A DNA stretch of 64,000 nt from Candidatus Woesearchaeota archaeon (GTDB lineage Archaea; Nanobdellota; Nanobdellia; Woesearchaeales; GW2011-AR15), in assembly GCA_038874655.1 (NCBI GenBank), contig JAVZBY010000002.1:57335-121334 (forward strand), in the 5' to 3' direction. The notes under the pieces were generated by a model. That model was not told the DNA's origin and searched no databases. It saw nothing but the letters and a program-made list of their open reading frames with translations. Below, piece by piece: positions 1,148 through 33,400 of the stretch; position 1 is the first letter of the stretch; each line of letters starts with the position of its first letter. Position numbers and translations under genes: made by a program.

Positions 1148-1282
1148 CTACATTTGTAATCTTTTTATAATACAAGTATAATATATGCTGTAAAAACTAA
1201 CTCAGTATACAAAAAAATACAAAAGATATTACAGAAAAATCAAATCCTAATTAAAAATGAAAATAAAAAATTTAGAGCATAA

Positions 1283-1447
1283 ATGAAACAACAATCAAAA
1301 GAAATTTCAATTTTAAATGTTAGATTGCCTGATGAAATTATTTCTTGGATAGATGAACTTGTCAAGAATGAAATTTTTAATTCAAGATCTGAAGCTATTA
1401 GAGAATTTTCCCGAGAATATGTCTTAAAAATGAGAGGTTTGAAATAA
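1283..1447 (+). CDS. Ribbon-helix-helix (CopG/Arc/MetJ-like) DNA-binding protein, 54 aa
   Basis: Too short for the ORF track. My translation is MKQQSKEISILNVRLPDEIISWIDELVKNEIFNSRSEAIREFSREYVLKMRGLK. It shows a beta-strand (LNVRLP), helix A, and the typical SRSEAIR start of helix B. Confidence 0.6.
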   Translation: MKQQSKEISILNVRLPDEIISWIDELVKNEIFNSRSEAIREFSREYVLKMRGLK

Positions 1448-1468
1448 TTAAATAATAAAAAAAACAAA

Positions 1469-1732
1469 ATGCCTGACAAAATTATTTCAGTTAGAATGCC
1501 AAAGTCATTAATAAATGAATTAAAAGAATTAGCAGATAAAAATCATTATTTAGATGTTAGTGAAGAAGTCAGAGCATTACTTAGACAAAAATACTTAGAG
1601 CATCAAGATCCTTATTCAATTAAATTAATGGCTATAAAAGAAAGCATTTCAAAACATGCGGTTCCTGAAAAAATAAAATCCTTGAAAGAAGACCTAAAAA
1701 AACTATTGGAGGAATTAAATGCTTTACAATAA
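1469..1732 (+). CDS. Ribbon-helix-helix protein with C-terminal helical extension
   Basis: IISVRMPKSLINELKELADKNHYLDVSEEVRALLRQ fits the RHH strand-helix-helix pattern. The gene overlaps the next gene by 14 nt. Confidence 0.55.
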   Translation: MPDKIISVRMPKSLINELKELADKNHYLDVSEEVRALLRQKYLEHQDPYSIKLMAIKESISKHAVPEKIKSLKEDLKKLLEELNALQ

Positions 1733-4700
1733 TTTTATTCAAAATAAAGCGAGAATTAAAAAAATTAAAATACATAAATATTCATGGTTATTATTTTTTG
1801 TTATAATCCTAATTAGTAGTTTAACTACAAAATACTTTATTGATGCAAATGCACAAGAAATCAACCAAACAATAATTAATCAATCTATTAATCAAACAAT
1901 TTTAAATTCAACATTAATAGTTTGGCACACTAACAATACTTTTGTTAATGAAACTATAATCTTTTACGCGTTATACAAAAACCAAACAAACCAACACATA
2001 ACAATATTAGATAATGCAACATGTATTATAGAAATTGAAAATCAAAAAAATTTAATGCAATTTGATCAGTCTAATAAAACTTATTTCATAGAAAAAACCT
2101 TTTTTGAAAATAAAACTTATAATTATAATATTAATTGCAATTCAACAAAATATCAATCCAAAGAATTTACAGATATTATTTTAATAAGGTTAAACAATTT
2201 ATCAAATAACTATTTACCAAATAACTCGTTATTGAATTATTCAACAAATTTTTCATCTAATACTACACTATCAAACATAACAAATAATAGTTCTCAAAAT
2301 ATATCTCAAAATTTAACTAATTTAATTGATTTGGATAATGATGGCTTTAATAATTCAATAGATTGTGATGACTTAAATCCAAACATAAACCCAGGAAAAA
2401 AAGAAATTCTTTATAATAATATTGATGATGATTGTAATATTTATACAAATGATTATTTAATTTTAAATTTAAATACAGACAAATCATTATATCAGCCAAA
2501 TGAGGTTGTAAAAATAACTATAAACTCCATAAATTTCTCTGACACATATCTAACAATAAACACACCAACAAATATATCTTATGTTTATATCTTTACAAAT
2601 AAAACATACCCCTTAACTCATAATTTTTCATTAACACAATCTAGCGGAAGATATACTATAGAAGCGATAAACTATCTTGAAAATTATTCTATACAAAATT
2701 CAATTGAATTTAATGTTACCTCAAACTTTAATGTTGATATTTTTGTTAATCAGACAGAAGCATATGAAAATGAAAAAATACACTTTAAAGCAATAATCAC
2801 AGGGAACATAGGAAATGTTAATATGATATGGAAAATGGATGACAATAATGAAGTTTACCAAAGTGAATTTGATTATAATTACACATATGCTAGATTATAT
2901 AATGTTGTTTTAATAGCGACAGATCAAGGTGGAAATCAAATAGTAAAAACAAAGCAAATAGCAATAAACAAAAAATACTTTTTAAGAATAAAAGTTATTG
3001 ATAATTCTACAAATGAAATTATATCTAATGCTACAATTAGACTAGATACAATAACACAAAAAGTAAATTCAACAGGTGAATTTGAATTTTTTATAACAAA
3101 TAAAACCTATAATATAAAAGTATTAGCAGATAACTATTATAGTTATGAAGACGATTTAAAAATTAATAATTCTTTATTATTTACTGTAAAATTAGTTAAG
3201 AACTTAGATTATGTTATTCCAGAAATTTATTTATTAAGCCCACAAAATAATACAGAAATAACCTCAACTAATAATCTTGAAATAAAATTCAAATTTAATG
3301 ATAACTCAAATGCAGATTGTTCATTATTAATTTCAAATGGAGATCAATGGTGGCAAGAATATCAAACATTATATAATTTATCTTCAAATTCAGAATACTT
3401 ATTTAAACTAAATTTATCTGATCTTTCAGATATTAATGATAAATTAATCTATAAACTAAAATGTATTGATGATGATGAAAACATAGCATATACCCAAAAT
3501 TATTTTTTAAATATTTTAAACAATCAAAAGTTAAATCAAGAAAATAATGTAGAAATAACACAAACATCTTCCAATGATACAGAACAAGAAACAACTTATC
3601 AAGTCATAGAAAACATATATAGTGTGATTCCAGATTTTGACACTTATAGTCCAGATGACAAGAAAATAGTTGAATACTTAGACATGGAAACTTTAATTAA
3701 AGATGCAAAAAGAAAACTTGAAATGGCTAACAGAGATCTATTTAATTTAAGATATAAACCTGACACAGAATCAATATTACAAGCAAGAGATGAAATCTAT
3801 CAAAGAATAGAAAAAATAAAAGATGAAACTCCTTTATCTGTAAGCACGAAGAAAAAAGTAAACTTTGTTAAATACGTAGATGAAAACGAAATTGAAAATT
3901 ACTTTGAAGAATATATAAAACTAAAAAACTTAAACATAGATAAAAATCTAAAAAAGAAATTAATAGAACAAAACAAACTTCTGCAGAAAAAATCAACTAT
4001 TGAAACAACAGCATACAATGTAGAAATTAAATATATTTCTGGCAGAATACAAGATATTACTTTATTAGTAAGGAATATTGATTCAGATTTATTATCAAAT
4101 CTAAATTTAGTTGAATTTGTTCCAAAAGATATAGAAGAGACAACTGACAACATGGTTTTTATAACCCAAGCACAAATATTAAATAAAGATCCTGTAATTG
4201 AATATGATTTATCAAAATTAAATGAGATTGTTTATTATTTTAAAGAATCTATTTCATTAGATGATTTACCTAAAATAAAACCTTTATTGATAACAACAAA
4301 ATTAGATGAAACCTCAAACAAAATAACAGGATTTGCTATATTTGATAATCTTGGTTTTTCAGAAACAAACAAAAAAATATTCATAATTGAATTAATAATT
4401 ATTTTTATCTTGTTAGGAATTTATTTATACTTCTATTTCACAAATAGAGAAACAATTGTTATAACAAATAATAATGATAAAAATAGTAATAAAAATCAAA
4501 ACAATGAATTCCAAGCATATACAAAAGATATGTCAAAACATTACTTAAATGTTAGACAATATGAATTTACTAATGAGAGCATATCAAAAGAAAATTCCCA
4601 AATAAATAAATTCTCACAAGCAAAAACTTTTGTAGATAATGAAAAAGTAAATTACATTTTTTCAGTTTTATCAAAAGCAGAGCATGACATCTCTAATAAG

Positions 4701-5036
4701 CAAATAAAAAATGCAGCTTTAAAATATCATGAACTTAAATTTTTATATGAATTATTAAACAAAAAAGACCAAAAAATCATTAAACCCTATTTGATAAACT
4801 TAATTGACAAAATAACACTTTATCATATTAATGAATTGCATGACTTAGCTATTTATGAATTAACTATGGGCAATCTAGAAAATGCTCTAAATTATTATAA
4901 TGAAATAGAACAAGAATATGAAAAACTATCAGAAAAATCAAAAGATAAAATTTTTGGAAAATGCTGCCAATTAGCAATTTTAATAAAAAATAATTCACTA
5001 AATAATTCATTATTTATAAAAAACACTCAAAAATAA
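1719..5036 (+). CDS. Large surface protein: N-terminal signal/TM, sequon-rich ectodomain, TM, ~190-aa cytoplasmic helical tail
   Basis: The ORF is 1105 aa in DNA where stop codons should be frequent. Motifs seen: hydrophobic N-terminus WLLFFVIILISSL; DLDNDGFNNSIDCDDLNPNINPGKKE..DDDCN (DxDxDG/Cys metal-binding-like); a PKD-like segment (IHFKAIITGN..YNVVLIATDQGGN); a CarboxypepD_reg-like segment (LRIKVIDNSTNE..YNIKVLADNYY); an Ig-like repeat (VIPEIYLLSPQNNTE..KCIDDDEN); and a TM IFIIELIIIFILLGIYLYFYF near aa 887. Confidence 0.75.
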   Translation: MLYNNFIQNKARIKKIKIHKYSWLLFFVIILISSLTTKYFIDANAQEINQTIINQSINQTILNSTLIVWHTNNTFVNETIIFYALYKNQTNQHITILDNATCIIEIENQKNLMQFDQSNKTYFIEKTFFENKTYNYNINCNSTKYQSKEFTDIILIRLNNLSNNYLPNNSLLNYSTNFSSNTTLSNITNNSSQNISQNLTNLIDLDNDGFNNSIDCDDLNPNINPGKKEILYNNIDDDCNIYTNDYLILNLNTDKSLYQPNEVVKITINSINFSDTYLTINTPTNISYVYIFTNKTYPLTHNFSLTQSSGRYTIEAINYLENYSIQNSIEFNVTSNFNVDIFVNQTEAYENEKIHFKAIITGNIGNVNMIWKMDDNNEVYQSEFDYNYTYARLYNVVLIATDQGGNQIVKTKQIAINKKYFLRIKVIDNSTNEIISNATIRLDTITQKVNSTGEFEFFITNKTYNIKVLADNYYSYEDDLKINNSLLFTVKLVKNLDYVIPEIYLLSPQNNTEITSTNNLEIKFKFNDNSNADCSLLISNGDQWWQEYQTLYNLSSNSEYLFKLNLSDLSDINDKLIYKLKCIDDDENIAYTQNYFLNILNNQKLNQENNVEITQTSSNDTEQETTYQVIENIYSVIPDFDTYSPDDKKIVEYLDMETLIKDAKRKLEMANRDLFNLRYKPDTESILQARDEIYQRIEKIKDETPLSVSTKKKVNFVKYVDENEIENYFEEYIKLKNLNIDKNLKKKLIEQNKLLQKKSTIETTAYNVEIKYISGRIQDITLLVRNIDSDLLSNLNLVEFVPKDIEETTDNMVFITQAQILNKDPVIEYDLSKLNEIVYYFKESISLDDLPKIKPLLITTKLDETSNKITGFAIFDNLGFSETNKKIFIIELIIIFILLGIYLYFYFTNRETIVITNNNDKNSNKNQNNEFQAYTKDMSKHYLNVRQYEFTNESISKENSQINKFSQAKTFVDNEKVNYIFSVLSKAEHDISNKQIKNAALKYHELKFLYELLNKKDQKIIKPYLINLIDKITLYHINELHDLAIYELTMGNLENALNYYNEIEQEYEKLSEKSKDKIFGKCCQLAILIKNNSLNNSLFIKNTQK

Positions 5037-5037
5037 A

Positions 5038-8000
5038 ATGTTTAAAAAGATAAAAAAAGAACTAAAAAAAGAGGAAAATAATAAAAATAAGGATAAAAAT
5101 AGTGGCATATTTAGATTCATGTATAAATTTAAAAAAATAGATTTTGCTAAACTTAACTTAAATATAGAGATTATTCTTTCAAATTTATTAATTATTTTAC
5201 TAATTGTTATTGCTATAATTTCTTTACTAATTTTAAGAGATTTTATAGGATATGTTCCTGGCTATAATCAAGCTCAAGGTGGTAGAATTACAGAATTAAA
5301 CATATATCAAGTTTATCCTGCAAGTATATGGAATGGTGTATATGGAATTGCATTACAAGCGCCTGTATTTAATACATCTTGGTTTATTTATGCAAATCCA
5401 GCAGGTATGTCTGAAATAAATCCTATTTATCCTTGTTTTGAGCCAGAGATTGAACATGAATTGTATGCAACCACTTTAAGCCCTTCACAAATAGTCTGGG
5501 AAAATATTACAGCAGCAACACCACAAATGTTAGATGATTATGTGGGTATTTCTTATAATGAATCCATGTCAGCAACGAAAAATTTCATTTATACAATGAC
5601 TGTTGATATTGGAACAAGAACAATTCCAAATGTTCCTACAATGTATTTAAGGCAATATGATAATCCAGGTAGCAGAGAATTTCCAGTAGGTATTTTACAA
5701 TATAATGGAAATATTATTATGGTTTCAAAAATAAACCCAAGTTATTTAACAGGCTATAGACCAGATAAAATCTTTAATTTTGAAATGATTGTTCCAGTTC
5801 CAATTAATACAACTAATTTGAAATATAATTTATATGTTGATCCTTTTGATTACTGTCCTCAAGGAGAGGCAGGAGAGAAAAAAATTCCAAGTAATATTCA
5901 AGGTTATGTTAGAGATAATCAAACACAGCAATTATTAGAAAATGCATTGGTTGCAATAGGAACAAGAATTTATATTACTGGGCCAGATGGAATTTACAAT
6001 ATTACTAACATACAACCAGGTAATTATTATATTGTAGCCATAAAAACAGGATTTAATAATTTTGTTTCTAATGTAACTATTCCAGAAAACACAACTATAG
6101 AATATAATATTAGTATGGAACTTTATCAAGAGCCATTAACAGGAACAGGCCCAGGAATTGGAACAGGGATTGGCCCTGGACAAGATGCACCAGGAACACA
6201 AACAAAATCAGGTGAAGGTCCTGGAATTGGTCCAGGTATTGGTCCTGGAATTGGGCCTTTTATTGAAAAACCACAAGAATTTGGAATTGATCACTGGCTT
6301 TCTTTAGATAAATTAAAAAAGAAAATCAAGATTGGATATTTCTTTACAGATAATTTATTAATATTTAGTTTCAGAAAAGAAACAGCAAAAATACAAATAA
6401 AAATTACAGGAAATGCATCAAAAATTTTAGAATTAAGTGATACACAAGCAACAATAGAACAAAATAAATATGCTAATATTACAATTAGAGGGTTTGGTTT
6501 AGAAAAAGGTGTTTATACTGGATTTTTAGAATTATCTGGAGATTTTAATGATACTTTGCCAATAGAAATAACAGTTACAGATGAAGAAAAATTACCTATT
6601 GAAGCAATGTTGATGCAATTAGATGTTTTAACAAAGCATCCATTAATGGGAAATAAGTTTAAATTTAGAGTGAATCTACAGAATTTATTAATAGAAGATT
6701 CTTATAATGTAAGATTAGACTATTATATTAGAGGGGTTGAAGCAGAAACTTCTAATTATTCAATGTATGTTGGCAATGATACTTTAACATTGTTTACTTC
6801 AGAATCAATAATAAAGGAAACATTTATTCCACCAGATTGGTCAAAAGGTGAATACTATTTAATTGTTGAAGCAAATTATTTAGATTTAAATGCAAGAACT
6901 TCTACAATTTTTGAAGTTTATGAACCTATCTATAAATATAAAGTATTAGGTAAATTAGAATTGTGGAAATTATTATTAGCTTTATTGATTTTAGCTTTGT
7001 TAATAATTATTATTTTATTGATTAGGCATAGAATTAATGCAACTAAAAGGTTCCATGCAAAAGTTGAATATAACCTATTGCCAAAAAAAGGTCCAAGATC
7101 TTTGTATGTAGGAAAAATTGCAGAAACAGAAATAGATACTTATTTTGATATGGATAAATTAACTGTTCATACTATTATAGCAGGTTCTACTGGAGGTGGT
7201 AAATCTATTTCAGCACAAGTGATTGTAGAAGAATGTCTATTAAAAGGAGTTGCTGTTGTTGTTTTTGATCCTACAGCACAATGGACAGGAATGCTTAGAA
7301 AATGTACAGATGAAAAAATGCTATCCTTTTACCCAAGATTCCATATGACTAAAAAAGATGCTCGTGCATTTAATGGAAACATCAGAGCAATAAAAAATCC
7401 TAGAGAAAAAATAGATTTAATGAAATATTGGAAACCTGGCGAAATCCAAGTATTCACTACAAGTACATTAGATCCAAAAGATATGGATATTTTTGTAGCT
7501 AATACAGTTAGAGAAGTATTCCATTCAAATTTACAAGAATACAGAGGATTAAGAATGTTAATGGTTTACGATGAAGTTCATAGATTATTGCCCAAATTTG
7601 GTGGCTCAGGTGAAGGTTTTGTCCAAATTGAAAGAGCATGTAGAGAATTTAGAAAATGGGGTATTGGTGTAATGCTAGTTTCACAAGTTTTAGCAGACTT
7701 CGTTGGACAAATTAAAGCTAACATTAACACAGAAATTCAAATGAAAACCAGGGATGAAGGTGATTTGCAAAGAATTGAAACAAAATACGGCAAAAGCTAC
7801 ATTCAAGAGTTAGTTAAAGCACCAGTAGGAAGTGGTATGGTGCAAAATTCTGATTGGAACAGAGGTAAACCCTATTATGTTACATTTAGACCAATTATGC
7901 ACAGTGTAGTAAGATTAACAGATCAAGAATTAGAACAATACAATAAATATAATGAAATTGTTGATGATTTATCATATCAATTAGAACAATTAGAACAAGA

Positions 8001-8697
8001 AGGAAAAGATGTTTTTGATTTAAAATTAGAATTAAAATTAGCATTAGACAAAATAAAATCAGGAAGCTTTAACATGGTTGAAATTTATTTAGAAGGGTTA
8101 AAACCAAGAATAGAAAAAATATGGCAAGAGCTTGGAAAAACACCTAAAAAAAGAGAAATTGAATTGGTTTCAGAAGAAGAGTTAAAATCAGCAATTGAAT
8201 CAGCAAAAAAAGAAAGTGAGCAATTAAAAACAACACAAACAAATTCAGGAACCGAGGAGAAAAAAGTCCTCGGTTTAAATGACGAAGTTCCTCCAAACAA
8301 AATATTGAAATTAGTAAATGGCACATTAGTTGTTAAATTAAAAGCATTGTATGATGAAATAAACGCATTAAAAGATGAAGAATTTAAACAACATGTAAAT
8401 GAAGACAAAAATGACTTTTCAGTGTGGATAAGAGATGCATTAAGCAATGACAAATGGGCTGATATTGCAGACACAATATTAACAAAAGAAGATTATTTAG
8501 CATTTTTAGAAGCATTAGATCAAGGAAAAGAAAAAACCTTCAAAGTAAAAACACCAAGACCAAAACCCTTTTCAAGTAAAAAAGATACAGGGACAAATAC
8601 ACAACAACAAAACACAAATCAAGAAAACACAAAACAACAAACAACAGAAAATCAATCTTCACAGAATTCGCAAACAAATCAACCAAATACAAATTAA
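5038..8697 (+). CDS. Membrane-embedded HerA/FtsK-superfamily (DUF87-like) P-loop ATPase with ~570-aa ectodomain and a C-terminal HVNxxKNDFxxW module
   Basis: TM1 is ILSNLLIILLIVIAIISLLIL. The ectodomain contains a CarboxypepD_reg-like segment (IQGYVRDNQTQQ..GNYYIVAIKTGF) and GPGIG repeats. TM2 is LWKLLLALLILALLIIIILLI (nt ~6961-7023). ATPase motifs are Walker A GSTGGGKS (7183..7206), FDPTAQW, Walker B MLMVYDEVH (7561..7581) and GIGVMLVSQ. The start codon lies 1 nt after the upstream stop. Confidence 0.8.
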   Translation: MFKKIKKELKKEENNKNKDKNSGIFRFMYKFKKIDFAKLNLNIEIILSNLLIILLIVIAIISLLILRDFIGYVPGYNQAQGGRITELNIYQVYPASIWNGVYGIALQAPVFNTSWFIYANPAGMSEINPIYPCFEPEIEHELYATTLSPSQIVWENITAATPQMLDDYVGISYNESMSATKNFIYTMTVDIGTRTIPNVPTMYLRQYDNPGSREFPVGILQYNGNIIMVSKINPSYLTGYRPDKIFNFEMIVPVPINTTNLKYNLYVDPFDYCPQGEAGEKKIPSNIQGYVRDNQTQQLLENALVAIGTRIYITGPDGIYNITNIQPGNYYIVAIKTGFNNFVSNVTIPENTTIEYNISMELYQEPLTGTGPGIGTGIGPGQDAPGTQTKSGEGPGIGPGIGPGIGPFIEKPQEFGIDHWLSLDKLKKKIKIGYFFTDNLLIFSFRKETAKIQIKITGNASKILELSDTQATIEQNKYANITIRGFGLEKGVYTGFLELSGDFNDTLPIEITVTDEEKLPIEAMLMQLDVLTKHPLMGNKFKFRVNLQNLLIEDSYNVRLDYYIRGVEAETSNYSMYVGNDTLTLFTSESIIKETFIPPDWSKGEYYLIVEANYLDLNARTSTIFEVYEPIYKYKVLGKLELWKLLLALLILALLIIIILLIRHRINATKRFHAKVEYNLLPKKGPRSLYVGKIAETEIDTYFDMDKLTVHTIIAGSTGGGKSISAQVIVEECLLKGVAVVVFDPTAQWTGMLRKCTDEKMLSFYPRFHMTKKDARAFNGNIRAIKNPREKIDLMKYWKPGEIQVFTTSTLDPKDMDIFVANTVREVFHSNLQEYRGLRMLMVYDEVHRLLPKFGGSGEGFVQIERACREFRKWGIGVMLVSQVLADFVGQIKANINTEIQMKTRDEGDLQRIETKYGKSYIQELVKAPVGSGMVQNSDWNRGKPYYVTFRPIMHSVVRLTDQELEQYNKYNEIVDDLSYQLEQLEQEGKDVFDLKLELKLALDKIKSGSFNMVEIYLEGLKPRIEKIWQELGKTPKKREIELVSEEELKSAIESAKKESEQLKTTQTNSGTEEKKVLGLNDEVPPNKILKLVNGTLVVKLKALYDEINALKDEEFKQHVNEDKNDFSVWIRDALSNDKWADIADTILTKEDYLAFLEALDQGKEKTFKVKTPRPKPFSSKKDTGTNTQQQNTNQENTKQQTTENQSSQNSQTNQPNTN
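6139..6258 (+). repeat. In-frame elastin-like GPGIG/GTGIG repeat linker in the ATPase ectodomain
   Basis: GTGPGIGTGIGPGQDAPGTQTKSGEGPGIGPGIGPGIGPF. The stretch is locally GC-rich within AT-rich DNA. Confidence 0.9.
8296..8520 (+). other. HVNxxKNDFxxWIxD module, copy 1 (C-terminus of the HerA-like ATPase)
   Basis: KILKLVNGTLVVKLKALYDEINALKDEEFKQHVNEDKNDFSVWIRDALSNDKWADIADTI. Confidence 0.85.
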
Positions 8698-8753
8698 TAA
8701 ATAAATACATAAAAAATTAATAAATCAATATTTAATAATATTATTAATAAAAA

Positions 8754-9650
8754 ATGGCACAAATTGAAACTAAAAGTTCAAATTACTTTTATCTAAAAGA
8801 TGGAAGAATAATAAAAACAATAGAAGAACTTCCAGATATTTTAGAAAATACTAGTGATCAAGTTTTTTATGAACATGTTAATCTTTATAAAAATGATTTT
8901 GCTAAATGGGTTTATGAAGTTTTTAATGAAAATGAACTATCAAAATTATTGGGCAATATAAAATCAAAAGAAGAAACAATTAGAACATTGAGAGCATATC
9001 TTAAAATAAAAGAGCAGAAAAAATTAAAAGAAGAAAAACAAAACAAAAATGAAAACATAAACGAAAATCTTTCTATTCATCAAACAAATGAAACTTTCAT
9101 AAAAAACACAGAAATAAAAATAGAAGACAAAAAAAAAGAAATAAATGAAACCTCACTAAAAAAAGAAATAAATGAAGAAAAAATAAATGAAACTCAAAAC
9201 CAATTTAATAATAATATAAAAAAAGAGATACAAAATAATAATGAAAAAATTTCTGATAAATTAGAAACTACTCTAAAAAGTCAAGAAACAATTTATAATG
9301 AAAATAATACTGAAAACCCAGATGATTTCTTTAAGAAAAATCCAATCATAATTGATAACATCATAGAAGCAAAAAAAGAAAACATAGTTTTAGAACCATT
9401 AACATTTATAGATTATGATAAAAATAATCCCAAAAAAACAATAGAGATTTTCAAAGACACATATGCAAAAGCATACCAAAGAATGAGTTTTCTTAGAAAG
9501 TCAGGATTTGATACTTCTTTAGTAGAAATAATGTTATTTAGGGTTTTGCCAAAAATCAAATTATATGAATCAACAAACGAAGAAAAAGATGCCTTAACAG
9601 TAAAAAGATTAATTAATGAAGTAATAGAAGAGTTAAATAATTTAAAATAA
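8754..9650 (+). CDS. Soluble protein with N-terminal HVNxxKNDFxxW module and Lys/Glu/Asn-rich middle
   Basis: FYLKDGRIIKTIEELPDILENTSDQVFYEHVNLYKNDFAKWVYEVFNENELSKLLGNIKSKEE lies at aa 11-83 (nt ~8784-9002). No TM segment is visible. Confidence 0.7.
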   Translation: MAQIETKSSNYFYLKDGRIIKTIEELPDILENTSDQVFYEHVNLYKNDFAKWVYEVFNENELSKLLGNIKSKEETIRTLRAYLKIKEQKKLKEEKQNKNENINENLSIHQTNETFIKNTEIKIEDKKKEINETSLKKEINEEKINETQNQFNNNIKKEIQNNNEKISDKLETTLKSQETIYNENNTENPDDFFKKNPIIIDNIIEAKKENIVLEPLTFIDYDKNNPKKTIEIFKDTYAKAYQRMSFLRKSGFDTSLVEIMLFRVLPKIKLYESTNEEKDALTVKRLINEVIEELNNLK

Positions 9651-9830
9651 ACTATATTAAACATATATATGAAACAAACTAATAGTAATCATTTATGAAT
9701 AAAAAAATAAAAAAGAAAAAATTATAAAGAAAAAAAATAAAATCTTATACATTAAAATAGCATTCAAATAAAATCAAGAATAATAAAAAAATTACAACCA
9801 AAAAATCAAATTTCACAAAAGAGGAAAAAA

Positions 9831-10886
9831 ATGTTTTTATTTAAACCGAAAGTTCCAAGAATTGAAGATCAAGAAGAAAAAAAAGAGGAACCTCAACAAG
9901 AAGAAAAATCAGAACAAGTTAATAGTTCTGCTGCTGCTTTATCAGCTGAAATTATAAAATTAAAAGCACAGTTTGATCAATTCTCAGAATTAAGAAAAGT
10001 AATTAATGAGCAGATTGGAGAACTTAGAGGAATGATAATGGATACTAATAGATCAATGCAGGATGTTGAAATTAAAACAGTAAAAGCAGTTGATTTAGTT
10101 GAAGCAGTTCATCCAGATAAATTAATGGTAGAAGTTAGAAAACAAGATGCAAAAATAGAAGCACTAAAAGCAGGAATTGAGAGCAATGATTCAATAATGA
10201 AATCTCTTATGGAGCAATTAAAAGATATGAGACATGAAATTTCAACATTCAGAGGTGTTGAGCAAGTAGTAAAATTAAATGAAGAAGTAAAAAAGGAATT
10301 AATGGATATAAAAAAAATAGAAGCAACAGTTGAAAGACATTCTGATAAAATAGAAGGCATATTCATTGAAACACAAAAAAAATTCCAAGAATTTGATTCA
10401 TTAAATGATAAATTCAAAGAATTGCAAAAACAAGTTTCAAGTTTATTAGAAAATTCTGATCAAGTTAAAGTTAAATTAGCAACAACAGCATCTAAAAAAG
10501 AAGTAGAAGACTTAGTAAATAAGTTTAATGACTTTGAAAAACATGTTGGTAATATTATTGATTTATTAACCAAAAGAACAGATGATACATTAAAAGAAAT
10601 AGATGAAAGATTCAAAAAATTAGAAAATAGCATGAATGATGCATTTGAAAAAAGATTAAAAAGAGCTGAATTAATGAACTCATTAATAGAAAAAATAGAA
10701 AAAGATGCACCAAGAATAGCAAAGGAATTACAAATAAGTGAAAAACTAAAAGAAGTTGAAATAAAAAAGATTGAAAGCCAACCAAGTCAAGAAATTAAAG
10801 AAAATGTCCAAAATGTAGAATCAGAGAAAAAGGGATTTTTCGCAAAACTATTTGGTAAAAAAGAAGAAAAAAAAGATACTAAATAA
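9831..10886 (+). CDS. Coiled-coil protein, acidic N-terminus, function unknown
   Basis: The 351-aa ORF shows a heptad-like E/K/L/I pattern throughout and has AAAGAGGA upstream of the ATG. I recognise no enzymatic motif. Confidence 0.6.
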   Translation: MFLFKPKVPRIEDQEEKKEEPQQEEKSEQVNSSAAALSAEIIKLKAQFDQFSELRKVINEQIGELRGMIMDTNRSMQDVEIKTVKAVDLVEAVHPDKLMVEVRKQDAKIEALKAGIESNDSIMKSLMEQLKDMRHEISTFRGVEQVVKLNEEVKKELMDIKKIEATVERHSDKIEGIFIETQKKFQEFDSLNDKFKELQKQVSSLLENSDQVKVKLATTASKKEVEDLVNKFNDFEKHVGNIIDLLTKRTDDTLKEIDERFKKLENSMNDAFEKRLKRAELMNSLIEKIEKDAPRIAKELQISEKLKEVEIKKIESQPSQEIKENVQNVESEKKGFFAKLFGKKEEKKDTK

Positions 10887-10952
10887 CTAAAAAATTAAAA
10901 CTAAAAAACTTTAGAAAACTATTCCAAATAATAAAATAAAAGAGGTGTTCAA

Positions 10953-11492
10953 ATGGAATTTTTAATTTATATAATTTTAACTTTAAATTTTTCAATAACA
11001 CTTATGAGTTTATTTATTTGTTTTTATCTTTTATATCATTATTTTAAAGATAAGCATAAAAATTATACAATTCATTCATTAATCAAAGGGATTTATATTT
11101 TAACATTTTTTCTTTTTATAGATACGTTATATAATACTTTTTTGAGTTTATCTCAATACGGATATATTAATCAAAAAATTTATTTTTTATTATCTTCATT
11201 TAATTTGCAATTATTTCCTAAAATTGGCTTATTTTTTTCAACAACATATTTAGTATATTTTATTATGGAAAAAAGAATTGATGAAATTAAATCAAAAGAA
11301 GACACATTAAAAGAATTAAAGGAATTAAATCAGCAGTTAGAAAAAAAATTAATAGAAACAGAAAAAGCACAAGAGTTATTAGAAAAAAAGACACAGGAAT
11401 TAGAAAAATATAATGAAATAGCAAAACAAAGAGAGCAAAAAATGTTGGAATTAATGAAAAAAATTGAAAAAATAGAGAAAAAAGTAAAATAA
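10953..11492 (+). CDS. Polytopic membrane protein with a C-terminal coiled coil carrying an LEKYxxIAxxREQKMLEL motif
   Basis: About four hydrophobic segments, then ELEKYNEIAKQREQKMLELMKKIEKIEK (nt ~11396-11460). AGAGGTG lies upstream of the ATG. Confidence 0.65.
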   Translation: MEFLIYIILTLNFSITLMSLFICFYLLYHYFKDKHKNYTIHSLIKGIYILTFFLFIDTLYNTFLSLSQYGYINQKIYFLLSSFNLQLFPKIGLFFSTTYLVYFIMEKRIDEIKSKEDTLKELKELNQQLEKKLIETEKAQELLEKKTQELEKYNEIAKQREQKMLELMKKIEKIEKKVK

Positions 11493-13410: not shown

Positions 13411-13420
13411 AAAAATAAAA

Positions 13421-16400
13421 ATGAAAAAATACTTTAATCAAAATTATAGAAGATTTATCTTTTTATTATTATTTTTTATATTGATAAATATAGTCTCTTC
13501 TTTACCAGGAAACTTATGTTTTGAAAGTCCATGTATTTGTGGTTCAGCATGTAATTATGGATATGAAATAAATAATGGTTTTAATACAATAGATTCTTGT
13601 CAAGATGGACCAGAATACACATATGAGTATGTTCATGATATTAATATATCAAATCTAAACTTTTCTTATTTTAGAGGAGGAGATATTATAAAAATAGATG
13701 CTTATGTTGATTGTGATCCAGATGGAGATGAAATAACATTTGTTTATCATAATGGAAGTTCTTGGGTTCCTTTTTATAATGCAAATTGTAATGTTAATGG
13801 TAAAACACATATCATAACAACAAAAACTCTTGATAATTTTGAAGGTACTCACACAATTAGGATAACTTTGGCATACAATGGTATTTCAAATATGATATGT
13901 GCTTATAATCATGATTCCTTATACTCAGATACAGATGATATTTCTTTTTATGTTTATGATAAAAATAAAGATTTAGAAAAACCGAAAGTAAATATAATCT
14001 CTCCTGAAAATAGTATTACCTATTTCTATGAAAATAATTTAATAATCAACATAAGTGTTAATATTTCAGATAACATTAAAGTACAAAATGCTTCAGCATT
14101 AATTACATGGGGCTCTAAAAACATGACATTAGATTTAATTAATAGTTCAGGAATATTTAAAGCAAATTTTACAAATACAAGTGATTTTGCTAAATATAAT
14201 TTAACAATAATTGCTTATGACAATTCTTCAAATGTTAATAATACAGAATCTATTATCTTTTTTATTAATAAAACAAAAGATATAAAAATTATAACTCCTA
14301 CTGAAAATAAATTATACCCTTATAAAGACTTTAACATAGAATATATTATAGATAACAATGAAACAAATATTTATTATTCTTGGGTAGAATTAAATTCTGG
14401 TTTAGCAAGCTTTGATGGGAACAATAAAAAAATTTCAGTGGAAGAGCAATCAGATGACTCTGTTAATTGTTATGAGATAAATAATATTTCACAATCTTTT
14501 CAATTAGAAAAAGATACTTATTTATCACAGCTAGAAATAATGCTTAAAAAATCTGGAAACCCTGATAATGCAAAACTAGACATAAAATCAGATCTCAATA
14601 ATGAAGTTTTAGCAACAGGGATAATTGATTTAAATTCAGTTAATCAAGAATTTAATTGGGTTGTTATAGATTTAAACGAAAAAATAAAATTAAATAAAAG
14701 TACAAAATATTGGCTTTTTTTAAATACTACAGAATCAAATATAGATAGTGAAAATTACTATGAATGGATGCTTACATCTAATATTTATCAAAATGGTTCC
14801 TATATAAATAATGTTTCAAAAGATTTACTCTTTATAATATATGATTATTATAGCTTTAACTTGACAGCATCACCATTATCATCAGTAATGGATTTAATTG
14901 TATATGCCGAAACAGACCAAGGTCAATTAAGCTCAAACCTTATAACATTTTATCTTGATGATAATTCTCCAGTAATAAATGAATATAATTTTACACCGAA
15001 TAACTATAAAGATATTGATCCAGGAACCACAATAAATTTTACTGTTAATGCAACTGATAATTTAGAAATTTCTAATGTTTATCTTATTTATAGATTGAAT
15101 GATTTTAATTGGATAGAAAAGATAATGGATTATTCTAATGGTATTTATAAAACAAATTTGACATTAAATCAAACAAATTTAACATTCTTTTTTAGAGCTT
15201 TTGATACAAGTAATAATTTAGTTGAAACTTCTGACACAAAAATAGAGTGTGATTATGAAAATAATTGGTACATTGAACCTTCTAAAATTAATACAACCTC
15301 AGGTTTAATAGGAAAAAATAAATCCTTAGGTATGATAAATATTTACTTAGATTCAGATTATGATCTTGATATTAATGTTTCTTATATTTCTAATTTATCA
15401 ATTCTTTTAAATGGAAGTGATTCTCTCTTATTAAAAATACCTTCTAATAAAAATTCTTCTTTTGAACTAGTTATCTTAAGTTCAAACAAAACATCAAGAG
15501 ATAATGTAATCTTAAATTTTAACTCTTTAAATGATTCAAATCCTAAAAACAATCAGTTAAATTTTACATATGTTTCTTTACTTTCAGGACCATATCTTTT
15601 TTTAGAGATAATAGATTATTATCCAGTAGTTTATCAAGGTGAATATCTAGCAAATCTAAAAGCAAAGTTAATAAATCTAGGAAATGAAACAGCTTACAAT
15701 ATAACTATTAATTGGCTTTTACCTGAGGGAATTATTCCAAAAAGAAATTCAACACAAAAATTTTCAGAACTACAGCCAGGCGGAATTTCTTATATCGTAT
15801 CTCAAATTTCAGCTCAAGTTTCTGAAACAGCATCATTAGGTGTTAAAGAATTGAAAGTTATTGCAAATGCTTCTGATTCATTTGGAAATTATTCAGATGA
15901 GACAATAAAATACATAGAAATAAAATCAAATCAACAACCCATCATTAGTTATTCATCAGGACAAGGTTCAAAATCCGCAGACACTTATATTCCAACAATA
16001 ATTAAAAATGAAGACAATCTAAATATAAATTTAAATAAATTAGAAATTAAAAAATTAATCCCTTATACAACAAATATAACTTTCATAAATAATATCTCAA
16101 ACAAAGACTATATTGTAGAAATTGAAATAGAGGGATTGTTTAAGGCATATTATAACCTATCGGATTATTTATTTTATATTCCAAAAAATAAAGAAAAAAA
16201 AATAAATCTAACAATTAATCTACCTTCATACTATGAATTAGGCATAAAAAAATATAAACTAATAGTTAATCTTTATGACATAAATTCTCTTTATGATATA
16301 AATTATTCATATGATTTAATTAATACTAATGAAACTGATGAAATAAAAAACAAATTAAAAACATTTGACAAAAATAAATTTAGTTTATTAAAACAGATAA

Positions 16401-17863
16401 AAAAAGAATTCGACATAATTGTTTTAGATAACGATGAAAAGATATATTGTTTAAACAATGCATCTGAAAAAATAAATCTTTTAGATATAGATAAAACAGA
16501 TATTAATCAAAAATATCATCAAGCAGAAATAAATTTTAAAAATCAAGAATATGATTTAGTCTTAGAATTTTGTGATTATCTAAACAATTTTATTGACAAA
16601 TATGAAAAAACTAGAAATTCATTAGACTATTTAAAAAATGAGATTAGTCAATTAAAAAAAGAAGGATATAAAACAGAAGAAATTGAAAATTACTATTTAT
16701 TAATAAACGAAACTATCTATAAAGGTAATCTAGAAAAAGCAAATGAACTTTTAGAAAAAACAAATCTACTTAAATCTAATTTGGAACAACCTGCACAAAT
16801 AAAAATAACCAATTTTATTATTAAAAATAAAAATTCTTTGATAATAACAGCTATCTTTTTACCTATATTTATTTTATCACTAAGCAGATTAATTTATCTA
16901 ACAAAAACAGAAACTAAACTAAAAAACTTAGAAAAAGAAAAACAAAAATTATTAGAGTTATTAAAAAAAATGCAAGATTATTATTATGATAAACATTTTT
17001 TAAGTTCAGATTTATATAAAATATCAATCCATAAAATAAGATTTAGATTAGGTCAAATAGAAATTTCTTTGCTAAAATTAAGAAATAAATTAAAAAATAC
17101 TAATTTAACTAAAAATGATATTGAAAACTTGATAAAAGAGATTCAAGAAGACTACTATATCAAAAAAATTATCTCAGAGCAAACATATGAAGATTTAATA
17201 AAATATTATTATAAACAATTAAATGATTTAGAACAAAAAAATAAGTTAGAACAAAAAAATAACTTAATAAATAAAACAATAGAAAAAATAGATAATAAAA
17301 AGATTAGACTAAAATTAACTTCTACAAATAATTCTATTTTATATTCAAAAAAATCAAATAAATATGATAATAAAGAACAAATTAAAACAATACATCCAAG
17401 TAAATATGAAAAAAAAGAAGCATCCTTAAATAATAATACAAAAAAAAATGAAATAAACGAAAAAGAAGAAAAGAATCATTTTTTAAATAATACTTTATAT
17501 AATATCAATGAAACAACAAAGCAAAACTCAAAAAATAATAAATCAGAATTAAACTTAGATAATATAAAAGATAATATAGAAGTTAACATAGACTTTTATA
17601 AAAGATGCGAAAAAAATAAAGCTTTTATTTTAAATAATGGATTAAAATTATATTCAATTTTTGATTTATATGAAAAATTAGTTTTTAATTTAATTGATAA
17701 TCAAACTTTTGAATATCATGTAAATCAGTATAAAAATGATTTTTCAACTTGGATATCAGATGTGTATAACTATAATAAACTGGCTAAAGAAGTAAAAAAA
17801 ATTAATTCAAAAGAACAATTAATAGACTTTTTTAAAAAAATAATCGAATATAATAAAAAATAA
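13421..17863 (+). CDS. 1,480-aa surface protein: signal peptide, Cys-rich head, Ig-like repeats, TM, ~340-aa cytoplasmic coiled coil ending in an HVNxxKNDFxxW module
   Basis: FIFLLLFFILINIVSS signal. Head motif CFESPCICGSACNYGYE..DCDPDGDE. Ig-like repeats (LEKPKVNIISPENS.., NSPVINEYNFTPNN..). TM LIITAIFLPIFILSLSRLIYL near aa 1139. The C-terminal module is at nt ~17621-17860. Confidence 0.75.
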   Translation: MKKYFNQNYRRFIFLLLFFILINIVSSLPGNLCFESPCICGSACNYGYEINNGFNTIDSCQDGPEYTYEYVHDINISNLNFSYFRGGDIIKIDAYVDCDPDGDEITFVYHNGSSWVPFYNANCNVNGKTHIITTKTLDNFEGTHTIRITLAYNGISNMICAYNHDSLYSDTDDISFYVYDKNKDLEKPKVNIISPENSITYFYENNLIINISVNISDNIKVQNASALITWGSKNMTLDLINSSGIFKANFTNTSDFAKYNLTIIAYDNSSNVNNTESIIFFINKTKDIKIITPTENKLYPYKDFNIEYIIDNNETNIYYSWVELNSGLASFDGNNKKISVEEQSDDSVNCYEINNISQSFQLEKDTYLSQLEIMLKKSGNPDNAKLDIKSDLNNEVLATGIIDLNSVNQEFNWVVIDLNEKIKLNKSTKYWLFLNTTESNIDSENYYEWMLTSNIYQNGSYINNVSKDLLFIIYDYYSFNLTASPLSSVMDLIVYAETDQGQLSSNLITFYLDDNSPVINEYNFTPNNYKDIDPGTTINFTVNATDNLEISNVYLIYRLNDFNWIEKIMDYSNGIYKTNLTLNQTNLTFFFRAFDTSNNLVETSDTKIECDYENNWYIEPSKINTTSGLIGKNKSLGMINIYLDSDYDLDINVSYISNLSILLNGSDSLLLKIPSNKNSSFELVILSSNKTSRDNVILNFNSLNDSNPKNNQLNFTYVSLLSGPYLFLEIIDYYPVVYQGEYLANLKAKLINLGNETAYNITINWLLPEGIIPKRNSTQKFSELQPGGISYIVSQISAQVSETASLGVKELKVIANASDSFGNYSDETIKYIEIKSNQQPIISYSSGQGSKSADTYIPTIIKNEDNLNINLNKLEIKKLIPYTTNITFINNISNKDYIVEIEIEGLFKAYYNLSDYLFYIPKNKEKKINLTINLPSYYELGIKKYKLIVNLYDINSLYDINYSYDLINTNETDEIKNKLKTFDKNKFSLLKQIKKEFDIIVLDNDEKIYCLNNASEKINLLDIDKTDINQKYHQAEINFKNQEYDLVLEFCDYLNNFIDKYEKTRNSLDYLKNEISQLKKEGYKTEEIENYYLLINETIYKGNLEKANELLEKTNLLKSNLEQPAQIKITNFIIKNKNSLIITAIFLPIFILSLSRLIYLTKTETKLKNLEKEKQKLLELLKKMQDYYYDKHFLSSDLYKISIHKIRFRLGQIEISLLKLRNKLKNTNLTKNDIENLIKEIQEDYYIKKIISEQTYEDLIKYYYKQLNDLEQKNKLEQKNNLINKTIEKIDNKKIRLKLTSTNNSILYSKKSNKYDNKEQIKTIHPSKYEKKEASLNNNTKKNEINEKEEKNHFLNNTLYNINETTKQNSKNNKSELNLDNIKDNIEVNIDFYKRCEKNKAFILNNGLKLYSIFDLYEKLVFNLIDNQTFEYHVNQYKNDFSTWISDVYNYNKLAKEVKKINSKEQLIDFFKKIIEYNKK
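17621..17860 (+). other. HVNxxKNDFxxWIxD module, copy 3
   Basis: AFILNNGLKLYSIFDLYEKLVFNLIDNQTFEYHVNQYKNDFSTWISDVYNYNKLAKEVKKINSKEQ. Confidence 0.85.
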
Positions 17864-30469: not shown

Positions 30470-33400
30470 ATGAATTCAGAAAAAAATTATCCGAAATTTG
30501 TATCATTGTTTTTAATTATATTAATTATAGTAATAAGTATAGTAATAATCAATGCACAAAATCTTTTAGAAAACAATTATATAAAAATTAATAAAAAAGA
30601 ATTCTTCTTAGGTGAAACAGTTGAAATAGAGCTTTTAATAAATGACCTAAATAATATTAACATTGATTTATATACACCAAACGCAATATATAAATATCCT
30701 TTTCCTTCAAAAATTATAAAATATAAACCAATATTAGAGGGTAATTATAGATTAGTGGTTTTAAAAAATAAAGAAATATTAACAACAACAACTTTTTTTG
30801 TTAAAAAAAATGAATATAATTTGATTGAAGAAATATTAAATCAGTCAACTATTAAAAATAACGAAGAAACTGAAAACCTCTTAGATATTAATAAACCTAA
30901 TTTAATTACAGATAAAGAAACATATCTTCTCAATCAAGAGGTTATAATTAGCATTAATAACCTATCCATAGATGATTTATCTAACTATAATTTAATTATA
31001 AATAGTTCTAATACTATTATTAATTATATAGATTTAAAATCAAACACAATAAAATTTTTTCCAAAAAAACAAGGTATTTATACATTAATATTAATAAGCA
31101 AAAAATCAAATGAAGAGATAGCAAAAAAAGAAATTTCAGTTAATTCATTTAATCAACAGTTTAATAATGAAATCTCTTTAAACTATGATAATAAAACTAA
31201 TTCTATTAATAATAACATAGACAATCAAAAAGAAATTATGATAAATCAATCAATAGAATATTCAGATAATTTATTTAATAATTCAAAAAATATTGAACAG
31301 CTTAACAGACAATATAATAATTTACCTTTTAAAATTAAGAATAGTAAAAATTATTTCTTAATAGCAAACATCACAATATCAAATAAAAGATTAAAAAACC
31401 TCTCATTAGACACATTTTCATTTATTAACTTATCAGATGACCTTTATGATATAGAAATTCAACCAAATATTAGACAAATAAGAAAAATAAAATTACATAA
31501 TGTATCATTTAAAGGCAATTTTGATTTAGGTCTGGAAGAAATTGATTCTCAAGCAACAAAATTTAAAGATATTAAAAAAGCAATTGCTATTGATCCAAGC
31601 AAAATTAATTTCACAAATGGTTTTATTGAAATAAATGCTACTTCAGATGTATTGTTAAAATGTAAAGATTGGAACTTTACAGAGCAGAAATGCTTTGGAA
31701 AATTTGAATTAATAAAAACATTAAATAAGGGACAAACCTATTTTATTGATATAAATAGCACAGATCCTGCATACTATGAGTTGGGGTTAGCATCTATAAA
31801 TACAAATAAATCCTTATACAAAGAAAATGAAACAGCACAAATATGGATTGTTGCACTAGATTATACAGGACATTTAATATCTAATGCAAATATAACTTTA
31901 CAAATAATTTCACCCAATAATGAGATTTTTATATTTTCTACAGATTCAAATATTTCCCAAATAGAATTAGGAATTTATGAATTAAATTTCACAACAAAAG
32001 AACAAGGTAATTACACTATATTTGCAAATGTTTATAGTAATTTAATTAATACAACTTTATTTAGTTTTTTCTCTGTAGTTGATTATTATGAATTTGAAAT
32101 AATAAGAAAAAGTCCATTAACCACAGATCCTTGGCGTGATACTTTTACAACAAAATTAAAAATAATTTCAAACAACCATAATGGCTTATTTAATTTAACA
32201 GAAAAAATACCAATCGGCTTTGAGATTATTGAAACAGATGCTATTATAACAAATGATTCAAATTATTATTATCTAACTTGGAATAATTTACAAAACAATT
32301 CAGAAGTTAATTACACAGCATTAGCTCCTTTTATTACTCCTGCAGTATACGAATTTAAATCCTTTGTTTCTTATGAAATGAATAATCAATCTTTAATATT
32401 TAACGAAGCAAAACCATGGTTCTTAGCAGTAGATCCTATTATGTACACACAAGTTTGTCAAGCACAAATTAACTCAGTAGGTCAAAATACATTTGGAAGT
32501 GCATGTGATGGTGTTTATCCAAGCTCATGTAGCGCTACTGGAGATTTATTAACTTGTAATGATAATTTTTTTGAAACCCATACAGGCACCAACACAAACA
32601 GATGGGCAGGTGTTAGAATTTCAGCATATGATTCAACAATAAGAGATTGTGTTTCAATAACTAGAGTTGAATTATGTTATGAATGGTGGCGTGATATAGG
32701 ATTTAGCAATGCAAGAATTGCAGTTGATAGAAATAATTGGGCTTCACCAACAACAGTAACAACAACATTACCTGGAACAACTGCAAACCCAGGAGTTACT
32801 TGTGCAGATGTTACTTCTTTAGAAGCATGGACATGTGATAATTTTGACGGAACAGGACAAGCAGCACAGGCAGTAGCACAAGCACAAAGAGATAATTCTG
32901 GCTCAACAAGAACTCTTTACATTGATGTTTTGTTTTTTAATGTGACTTATTTAAGAGATTACCCTCCAAACATAACACAAAATAGACCACCTTCATATTA
33001 TTATAACGATACTTTCAGCCCAATAAATATTACATTTAATTGCTCTGCTGTTGATGATATCAGAGTTAGTAATATCTCATTATATATAACAAATCTAAAT
33101 AATAATTCATTTGCATTAAATCAAAGCTGTAATATCTTAGCAACATCTGGAAGTTGTCAATGGACTTTATTATTGCCAAGTGGAAATTACACATGGAATT
33201 GTTTAGCTTATGACAATAGAACACAAGGAACATGGGGCACAAATAGAACAATAATTATTAATTACACTATGCCACCAACACCAAAGATTAATTCTTATAG
33301 TTGTGAAATAAATACACTAAATAATTGGCAGCCATGTAATACAATAGCATATGGCAATACTATATTAAGGGTTAGAGCAAATTGTACAACAGACTCAGGA

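Follow-up and report, generated by a model that had tools for sequence, protein, structure and literature searches.

What work might a pump-type ATPase do when it is anchored in the membrane of an archaeon with a large extracellular domain held between its two transmembrane (TM) segments? The question is raised by a gene in a stretch of 64,000 nucleotides (nt) from Candidatus Woesearchaeota archaeon (assembly GCA_038874655.1, contig JAVZBY010000002.1, positions 57,335–121,334 of the forward strand; hereafter the window), which is very AT-rich (GC content ~23%). This ATPase gene starts 1 nt past the stop codon of an open reading frame (ORF) for a 1,105-residue surface protein (1719..5036). An earlier reading of the letters alone (the sequence-only reading) had noted the ORF, the 1-nt gap and a series of HerA/FtsK-type motifs, all of which are present where it placed them. 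We find that the product is indeed a HerA/FtsK-superfamily ATPase with two TM segments and a large extracellular loop (Pfam, hydropathy and positive-inside rule), and that it is very probably the motor of a conserved surface complex of Woesearchaeota.

From N- to C-terminus the protein comprises a K/R-rich N-terminus, TM1, a 574-residue ectodomain, TM2, a HerA-clade ATPase, a helical extension and a DUF5752-like module, with the following features (window positions in nt, then residues):

5038..8697 (+): ATPase ORF; 1,219 residues, ATG start, a single uninterrupted 3.66-kb frame
5038..5160 (+), residues 1–41: K/R-rich cytoplasmic N-terminus, with 14 K/R among the first 40 residues
5161..5235 (+), residues 42–66: TM1, Kyte-Doolittle peak 3.14
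5236..6957 (+), residues 67–640: ectodomain, from Pfam, AlphaFold2 (AF2) and glycosylation sequons
5896–6120 (+), residues 287–361: CarboxypepD_reg domain, Pfam 35.9 bits against a threshold of 32.3
6124–6267 (+), residues 363–410: GPGIG-rich linker (about residues 365–416 in the AF2 model), disordered in AF2 (predicted local distance difference test score (pLDDT) ~30)
residues about 419–514 and 524–628 (+): two immunoglobulin (Ig)-like sandwiches in the AF2 model
6958..7023 (+), residues 641–662: TM2, Kyte-Doolittle peak 3.41, with RHRINATKRFHAK directly after it
7024..7917 (+), residues 663–960: HerA-clade P-loop ATPase core, from Pfam, PDB sequence search and AF2/Foldseek
7183–7206 (+), residues 716–723: Walker A, GSTGGGKS, from a motif scan of the ORF
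7264–7284 (+), residues 743–749: FDPTAQW
7555–7581 (+), residues 840–848: Walker B/DEVH, MLMVYDEVH
7642–7662 (+): REFRKWG, a HerA-type motif
7669–7686 (+): VMLVSQ; GVMLVSQ ends at residue 883
7918..8247 (+), residues 961–1070: helical extension past the core, long helices in AF2 (model residues 300–407)
8293..8517 (+), residues 1086–1160: DUF5752-like module, from the motif scan; AF2 pLDDT ~85–90
8392–8427 (+; to 8430 in the motif scan), residues 1119–1130: HVNEDKNDFSVW, the HVNxxKNDFxxW motif of that module, in the ATPase tail

A HerA-clade ATPase with an extracellular loop

The class of the ATPase was assessed from the ranking of profile scores and fold matches, which here stands in for a phylogeny. 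The ATPase region matches the Pfam families DUF87/HerA central (residues 690–788; 47 bits against a gathering threshold of 23.2) and HerA_C (26.2 bits against 22), and both the motif scan and Pfam show a single Walker A/B set. All significant matches in a PDB sequence search were HerA-type chains (9x1l, 9c1m, 4d2i, 8wiv, 8xau, 8ziq), aligned across GxTGxGKS, DPxxx(Y/W), DExH and R-E-x-R-K-x-G...SQ, with 12–18% identity to the solved HerA proteins; VirB4 appeared only at E = 0.57 and lay outside the top 50 fold matches. The AF2 model of residues 663–1160 (pLDDT 83.6, predicted template modelling score (pTM) 0.73) had S. solfataricus HerA (4d2i) as its top Foldseek match against PDB (E = 2.6e-11, ~380–390 aligned columns), followed by SIR2-HerA and HerA-NurA, then by FtsK (6t8b, 2iut, 2ius; 3e-8), and then, all at ~1.5e-7, by TcpA (6o1x, 1.3e-7), the STIV2 packaging ATPase B204 and EccC (4nh0, 1.6e-7). 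A viral library yielded matches to a HerA-like protein of a phage, to the PH1 packaging ATPase (PH1 being a membrane-containing virus) and to FtsK-like proteins. On this ranking the ATPase is a HerA-clade member of the FtsK–HerA superfamily.

Archaeal HerA (S. solfataricus 4d2i; T. kodakarensis HerA-NurA 9x1l) is the best match in both sequence and fold, sharing with the ATPase the DUF87 motif signature and a helical region after the RecA-like core, and REFRKWG aligns with the REGRKFG of HerA, which is compatible with ring assembly. The ATPase is unlike HerA in its TM hairpin enclosing a 574-residue ectodomain, in its C-terminal DUF5752-like module and in having neither HAS barrel nor NurA. 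The AF2 model has only a short beta-hairpin ahead of the P-loop strand, and the ~50 residues between the end of TM2 (residue 662) and the start of Walker A (residue 716) leave no room for a HAS barrel. NurA, Mre11 and Rad50 families gave no match among the window ORFs scanned (most of those of at least 150 residues), nor were they among the frequent neighbour families of 80 related loci, in which ORFs were called and searched with the window proteins. The NCBIfam HerA equivalogs scored far below their cut-offs (HerA_Thermprot 34 bits against 800; helicase_HerA 27 against 970). The sequence-only reading had held an end-resection role to be unlikely, and these results, which set the protein apart from the HerA-NurA housekeeping clade, agree.

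Its more specific suggestion, kinship with CedB or with VirB4/TraC, was not borne out. NCBIfam models of that kind reached 22–26 bits against cut-offs of 366–600 (TraD 26 against 366, TraC 22 against 567, CedD 23 against 600), CedD being the sole Ced ATPase model in NCBIfam to match, and the operon holds no VirB6/CedA-like channel gene and no VirB2/CedA1-like pilin gene. Pfam gave no match to FtsK_SpoIIIE at E ≤ 0.01, and none to TrwB_AAD_bind or T4SS-DNA_transf on the window protein; some family members (P0049, P0116) match TrwB_AAD_bind weakly.

The position of the ATPase in the membrane follows from its charged flanks: with a K/R-rich N-terminus and RHRINATKRFHAK after TM2, the positive-inside rule puts the 574-residue loop outside the cell and the ATPase inside. 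N-X-S/T sequons are 2.7-fold enriched in the loop (14 observed against 5.0 ± 2.1 expected from shuffles), bearing out the sequon-rich ectodomain of the earlier reading, and occur at the expected frequency in the cytoplasmic part (2 against 2.1). Totals over 26 family members are 401 against 150 expected for the loop and 35 against 48 for the cytoplasmic part. This confinement of the enrichment to the loop agrees independently with an external location, and suggests that the ectodomain is probably N-glycosylated. Of the two findings that the sequence-only reading had named as fatal to it, a housekeeping placement of the ATPase with a mis-joined N-terminal part and a cytoplasmic ectodomain, neither was obtained.

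The AF2 model of the ectodomain (mc7cb83910ef9) has a pLDDT of 77.8 and a low pTM, the latter because its domains are flexibly linked. It comprises a beta-rich N-terminal domain containing C133 and C273, which are invariant among the aligned homologues, a CarboxypepD_reg sandwich, a disordered GPG linker and two Ig-like sandwiches by TM2; the CarboxypepD_reg-like domain and GPGIG linker named in the sequence-only reading are both real. Foldseek returned generic tandem Ig/FN3-type matches only (RbmA, Vpr fibril, S-layer SbsC, macroglobulins and ciliary proteins), with low TM-scores, and no enzyme, receptor or ligand-binding fold was recognised in the model, which portrays the ectodomain as an adhesin- or stalk-like module.

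None of the characterised FtsK–HerA members with which we compared the ATPase carries a large extracellular domain between its membrane anchors. FtsK/SpoIIIE and Streptomyces TraB belong to the same superfamily and likewise have TM segments before a C-terminal ring-ATPase motor, and their principle, DNA pumped at a membrane, is the one proposed below. They have four or five TM segments and short loops, whereas the ATPase has two and a huge extracellular loop, and its operon context is neither cell division nor conjugation; no gamma/winged-helix domain was detected on the ATPase, whose C-terminus consists of the helical extension and the DUF5752-like module. Type IV coupling proteins (VirD4/TrwB/TraD/TcpA) share the order of cytoplasmic N-terminus, TM segment, external loop, TM segment and cytoplasmic nucleotide-binding domain. 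The resemblance is in layout only: their loop has tens of residues against 570–5,600 in the ATPase family, and no relaxase, VirB4 or VirB6 gene was found in the 80 loci.

EccC/EssC of type VII secretion also have two N-terminal TM segments followed by an FtsK/HerA-superfamily ATPase, and EccC works with membrane partners bearing large ectodomains, but they carry three or four tandem ATPase domains, whereas the window ATPase has one, belongs to an archaeal lineage and has no detected WXG100/LXG protein. The Ced and Ted DNA-import systems combine a VirB4-like ATPase (CedB/TedB) with a channel of 6–7 TM segments (CedA/TedA) and a pilin of 2 TM segments (CedA1/TedC) (PMC9905601). Their presumed task is to pass DNA from one touching cell to another, which is also what we propose for the ATPase operon. 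They resemble that operon in being archaeal and chromosomal and in having a membrane-associated VirB4/HerA-type ATPase; neither a 6–7-TM channel gene nor a 2-TM pilin gene is present in the ATPase operon. The ATPase is a distinct subfamily with a distinct operon, outside the canonical HerA-NurA, Ced/Ted, type IV coupling protein, FtsK and type VII secretion groups.

Conservation of the family and its operon

A search of 5.8 billion proteins returned 38 homologues with 42–73% identity, about 30 of which cover more than 90% of the query; those with names are each a 'DUF87 domain-containing protein' of Woesearchaeota, Pacearchaeota or Nanoarchaeota. Nearly all of 25 aligned homologues have the two-TM layout. 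Because homologues lack the first ~30 residues, the true start of the ATPase may be Met28 rather than Met1, which would leave the topology unchanged. Constraint on the ATPase core is much stronger than on the stalk, mean identity across orthologues being 74% in the core, 70% in the first 80 residues of the extension and ~40% in the ectodomain, and the conserved segments of the core reach beyond the nucleotide-binding motifs.

Among 1.84 billion cluster representatives (50% identity clusters), a profile built from the cytoplasmic half matched at least 430 clusters at E ≤ 1e-30. The ATPase module forms the C-terminal end of essentially every protein listed, preceded by a hugely variable part in proteins of up to 6,253 residues, and many orthologues carry added C-terminal TPR repeats. 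By a crude hydropathy scan, 94 of 168 members (many of the others being fragments) have an N-terminal TM segment and a second one before the ATPase, the enclosed segment ranging from roughly 100–200 to 5,560 residues (median ~554). The extreme cases, P0081 (4,862 residues; annotated Woesearchaeota, with DUF87 as its sole strong domain) and P0091 (6,253 residues), are ATPases fused to giant ectodomains; such fusions, found in many lineages, tie the motor to adhesin-like surface proteins by the Rosetta-stone argument.

At least 582 stretches of GTDB species genomes encode relatives, and the best 79 loci are essentially all from Woesearchaeota/Nanoarchaeota, with record titles that name either group or just 'archaeon'; judged by these matches, the family is confined to the Woesearchaeota/Nanoarchaeota group of DPANN archaea. 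Many third-party GTDB assemblies with the operon are titled 'uncultured Methanosarcinales' (loci L006, L009, L011, L012, L017, L019 and others) and one is titled 'Candidatus Saccharibacteria' (L043). The gene set and gene lengths of L043 are the same as those of the Woesearchaeota locus L047, and these two kinds of title are therefore probably mislabels or the result of mis-binning. A short-form paralogue of ~770–812 residues, with an ectodomain of ~200 residues, occurs in L067, L080 and L083 and also in L032, L046, L078 and L079; it is paired with a longer surface protein (~1,350–1,410 residues) and is followed in 3 loci by three tandem KaiC-like genes. In the metagenome-assembled genome DPANNHV_H2.bin.75 the long form (L027) occurs alongside the short one (L032). 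In L004 the giant P0081 stands without an upstream surface-protein partner, among housekeeping genes (prepilin peptidase A24, gyrB and SRP54), with only a short coiled-coil-like gene directly 3' of it.

In the window, the ATPase gene comes fourth in a block of closely packed genes that all run in one direction (1283–11492, +). The other genes of the block, together with a more distant giant discussed with them, are:

1283..1447 (+): RHH1, 54-residue CopG-type ribbon-helix-helix (RHH) protein, first gene of the block; RHH_1 27.3 bits against 20.5
1469..1732 (+): RHH2, 87-residue ribbon-helix-helix protein; RHH_1 21.3 bits against 20.5, with a 14-nt overlap with the start of the surface gene
1719..5036 (+): 1,105-residue bitopic surface protein; N-terminal signal/anchor, MopE-like and PKD-like domains
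8754..9650 (+): 298-residue soluble protein with an N-terminal HVNLYKNDFAKW module (8874–8912); weak DUF5752 match
9831..10886 (+): 351-residue coiled-coil/helical protein, 42–44% identical to orthologues in L001–L003
10953..11492 (+): 179-residue membrane protein with ~3–4 hydrophobic segments and a C-terminal coiled coil, last gene of the block
30470..44860 (+): 4,796-residue secreted adhesin-like giant; Pfam CARDB and Big_13, Sec-like signal peptide

This arrangement recurs across the 80 related loci, the synteny counts being limited to those with enough flanking sequence. The pairing of surface protein and ATPase singled out by the sequence-only reading is conserved: in 60 of 66 loci, orthologues of the surface gene (21–25% identity) lie directly upstream of the ATPase and on its strand. 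For an RHH gene, likewise upstream and on that strand, the count is 53 of 57, and orthologues of RHH1 itself are upstream in 42 related loci. Downstream, relatives of the 298-residue gene lie 3' of the ATPase in 57 loci, and a coiled-coil gene within 3 kb on the same strand in 50 of 65; the 179-residue membrane protein is conserved solely in the closest genomes (6 loci). The 1,105-residue surface protein has a TM segment at residues ~887–905 followed by a helical cytoplasmic tail of ~200 residues. The 351-residue coiled-coil protein has 26 invariant positions, and its 21-orthologue profile had no significant match in PDB (best E = 0.12) or Pfam.

The N-terminal ~650 residues of the 4,796-residue giant are 29–32% identical to giants of L002 and L003. 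In the window it lies ~19 kb beyond the operon, in other genomes a homologue directly follows the operon, and in 25 of 48 loci a giant CARDB/Big-type gene shares the strand of the ATPase within 7.5 kb downstream of it. Signal sequences of the surface and giant proteins are of the ordinary Sec type, and the 298- and 351-residue soluble helical proteins have no signal peptides.

Clustering every ORF of the 80 loci without bias brought out the RHH, surface, ATPase/DUF5752 and coiled-coil families and otherwise only the housekeeping flanks adk and truD; it showed no gene for a channel, a pilin, a nuclease or a relaxase. The two housekeeping genes flank the operon in subsets of genomes, which argues that there it belongs to the core chromosome and not to a mobile element. 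The ATPase is probably co-transcribed with the RHH pair, the surface protein, the DUF5752-module proteins and the coiled-coil protein. No published description of the ATPase family or of the operon was found in the full-text literature searched, where absence does not amount to proof.

The HVNxxKNDFxxW module of the ATPase tail occurs three times in the window, the other copies being at the N-terminus of the 298-residue protein and in the cytoplasmic C-terminus of a second surface protein:

13421..17863 (+): 1,480-residue bitopic surface protein with a cytoplasmic C-terminal HVNQYKNDFSTW (module at 17717–17755); DUF5752 19 bits, below threshold

The module is part of Pfam DUF5752, for which the window copies score 18–19 bits against a threshold of 23; PF19027 is recorded on the homologues P0017 and P0019–P0022. 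DUF5752 has no known function, so the family name adds nothing mechanistic. Another DUF5752 protein of 357 residues (51061–52134; 26.8 bits against 23) matches a different part of the model than HVN does, and the surface-protein island as a whole is unusually rich in this uncharacterised module.

Candidate activities of the probable motor

The sequence-only reading had suggested a motor for a cell-contact or transfer apparatus, a reasonable suggestion that synteny and the giant-ectodomain fusions strengthen. On how such a motor would work we are more tentative. The mechanism that we favour, with rather less than even confidence, is that of a membrane ring translocase at a cell-contact apparatus, most likely moving DNA. 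A ring is expected because the relatives of the ATPase are ring translocases, and the polymer would most probably be DNA because the nearest of them are all double-stranded DNA translocases. HerA, FtsK and the packaging ATPases of membrane-containing viruses pump double-stranded DNA, the last two at or through a membrane. Like these enzymes, the ATPase would assemble as a ring lying flush with the membrane on its cytoplasmic side; as a hexamer it would arrange 12 TM helices round the pore axis and display six ectodomains outside. ATP hydrolysis would thread a polymer through ring and membrane where the ectodomain and the partner surface proteins grip another cell, and inside the cell surface proteins and motor would be joined in one patch by way of the shared DUF5752 modules, the TPR tails and the coiled-coil protein. 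We infer what the ATPase transports, in which direction, and its oligomeric state. That the operon as a whole is a previously unrecognised contact-dependent translocation apparatus of Woesearchaeota/Nanoarchaeota, moving DNA or another polymer between symbiont and partner, is possible but doubtful.

Several points weigh against a translocase of this kind. Its ring and pore are assumed by homology; no polytopic channel, pilin, relaxase, nuclease or single-stranded-DNA-binding protein was found in the operon, and the RHH proteins may do no more than regulate. The superfamily also has members, EccC and VirB4 among them, whose substrates are proteins and not DNA. The giant and partner surface proteins have Sec-type signals and hence need no dedicated exporter, and the carriers of the operon have been neither cultivated nor imaged, so that host contact is an assumption taken from other DPANN archaea. 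Covalent ectodomains of up to 5,600 residues are hard to explain in a pure conduit, and would fit a force-transmitting or anchoring role at least as well.

Such a role is the strongest alternative, although we consider it on balance improbable. Here ATP would be used to pull, reorganise or cluster surface adhesins with no polymer crossing the membrane, the ATPase acting either in cis, by way of the TM hairpin on the ectodomain that it carries itself, or in trans, on partner surface proteins that DUF5752/TPR modules and the coiled-coil protein recruit and whose cytoplasmic tails it would engage. The hold on a partner cell would thereby be tightened or released, in a mechanotransmission like that of MacB or FtsEX. 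The ectodomain of ~200–5,560 residues, with its adhesin-like Ig folds, is joined covalently between TM helices beside the motor, several bitopic surface proteins of the island share the cytoplasmic module of the ATPase tail, and many orthologues end in TPR repeats, which bind proteins; the missing channel and DNA-processing genes and the Sec signals of the partner proteins point the same way. We know of no characterised FtsK–HerA member that works by pulling adhesins, however, and the nearest structural relatives are all DNA pumps. The very high conservation of the ATPase core, which extends outside the nucleotide-binding motifs, also fits a conserved substrate.

An unlikely possibility is that the ATPase is a protein-export motor, a functional analogue of EccC/EssC that exports or assembles surface or effector proteins of the island, with the DUF5752-module proteins or the coiled-coil protein as candidate cargo. 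The topology of two TM segments followed by the ATPase is that of EccC and the coupling proteins (4nh0 and 6o1x match in Foldseek at ~1.5e-7), and the downstream 298- and 351-residue helical proteins, having no signal peptides, could be substrates as WXG100/LXG proteins are in type VII secretion. The ATPase nevertheless has one ATPase domain against the three or four of EccC, HerA and FtsK outscore EccC in Foldseek, and no WXG100-like family was detected among the scanned window and neighbour proteins. Since membrane proteins, the ATPase included, also bear the DUF5752 module on their cytoplasmic tails, docking suits this module better than service as a secretion signal.

It is very improbable that the ATPase is a defence protein, that is, a membrane-sensor version of SIR2-HerA or DUF4297-HerA whose ectodomain would detect viral attachment. 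The best PADLOC matches are HerA and mad8 models (~52 bits) and several of the top PDB matches are HerA proteins of defence systems. The anti-phage SIR2-HerA and DUF4297-HerA proteins, by comparison, adjoin their effectors, and PADLOC, Pfam and clustering found no SIR2, DUF4297 or nuclease effector in the operon or among its neighbours. Gene order and partners are fixed over ~80 species and flanked by adk/truD in subsets of them, whereas defence islands are patchy, and the conserved partners are surface and coiled-coil proteins. We rejected this reading, PADLOC having returned only the generic HerA and mad8 matches.

That a canonical HerA repair helicase was wrongly joined to the upstream surface-protein gene has next to no probability, as only the DUF87/HerA assignment itself speaks for it, the 3.66-kb ORF is uninterrupted at 23% GC, the full-length protein is conserved (38 homologues, 79 GTDB loci; its architecture recurs in more than 80 Woesearchaeota/Nanoarchaeota genomes, so the gene is not mis-joined), and the HAS barrel, NurA/Mre11/Rad50 and equivalog results given above rule out canonical HerA-NurA.

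The wider island and the meaning of the ATPase

The island extends beyond the operon. Two small genes flank the boundary of the surface block and a second sub-cluster (12320–19570) follows, containing a 75-residue gene, a KaiC-like ATPase, the 1,480-residue surface protein and a 557-residue two-TM protein; further secreted proteins lie downstream:

11499–11696 (−): small RHH-like gene; RHH_1 17.5 bits, below threshold
12320–12547 (+): gene for a 75-residue protein with no family match
12574–13410: KaiC-like ATPase, 169 bits
19647–26987: sensory module
46741–49494: 917-residue secreted protein

Small DNA-binding genes of this kind may be a feature that recurs at the heads of operons. Downstream of the ATPase operon, KaiC-like genes are found again in L006, L008, L009, L015, L017 and L055. 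GC content falls to 17% at 16001–20000, against ~23% for the window, in a segment that spans the end of the 1,480-residue gene and the 557-residue gene. The sensory module, which lies between the surface-protein clusters and is unexpected for a reduced DPANN genome, consists of a PAS/GAF protein, an SBP_bac_3 binding protein and a 1,271-residue SBP_bac_3-HisKA-HATPase_c histidine kinase. The 4,796-residue giant (30470–44860) and the 917-residue protein, both without a C-terminal TM segment, have a common N-terminal region and share a C-terminal domain of ~80 residues (...GILW..YNG[TS]Q[DN]L[VI]FFT...Y[DE]YE[LI]R[VI]PANL...Y.TE..), which may serve to sort or anchor surface proteins in these archaea.

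Much of the diversity of archaea lies in DPANN lineages, which are thought to live by attaching to other cells and taking material from them. Electron cryo-tomography of other DPANN archaea has revealed tubes and barrel-shaped complexes at their contact structures, the proteins of which were not named (PMC11329633). The ATPase is a good candidate for the motor of DPANN cell-contact machinery, and a concrete, conserved and testable one: a highly constrained pump-type ATPase fused to surface domains of 200–5,600 residues and encoded, in at least 80 species, in a fixed operon with adhesin-like proteins. It also extends the known architectural range of the FtsK–HerA superfamily. A motor that proved to move DNA would add to the DNA-transfer systems of archaea one that differs from both conjugative plasmids and Ced/Ted; one that proved to pull adhesins would put a ring ATPase to a new use. 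Should the operon encode a contact-dependent apparatus, it would in effect be a new archaeal secretion or uptake system, built around a HerA-type ring with its own stalk.

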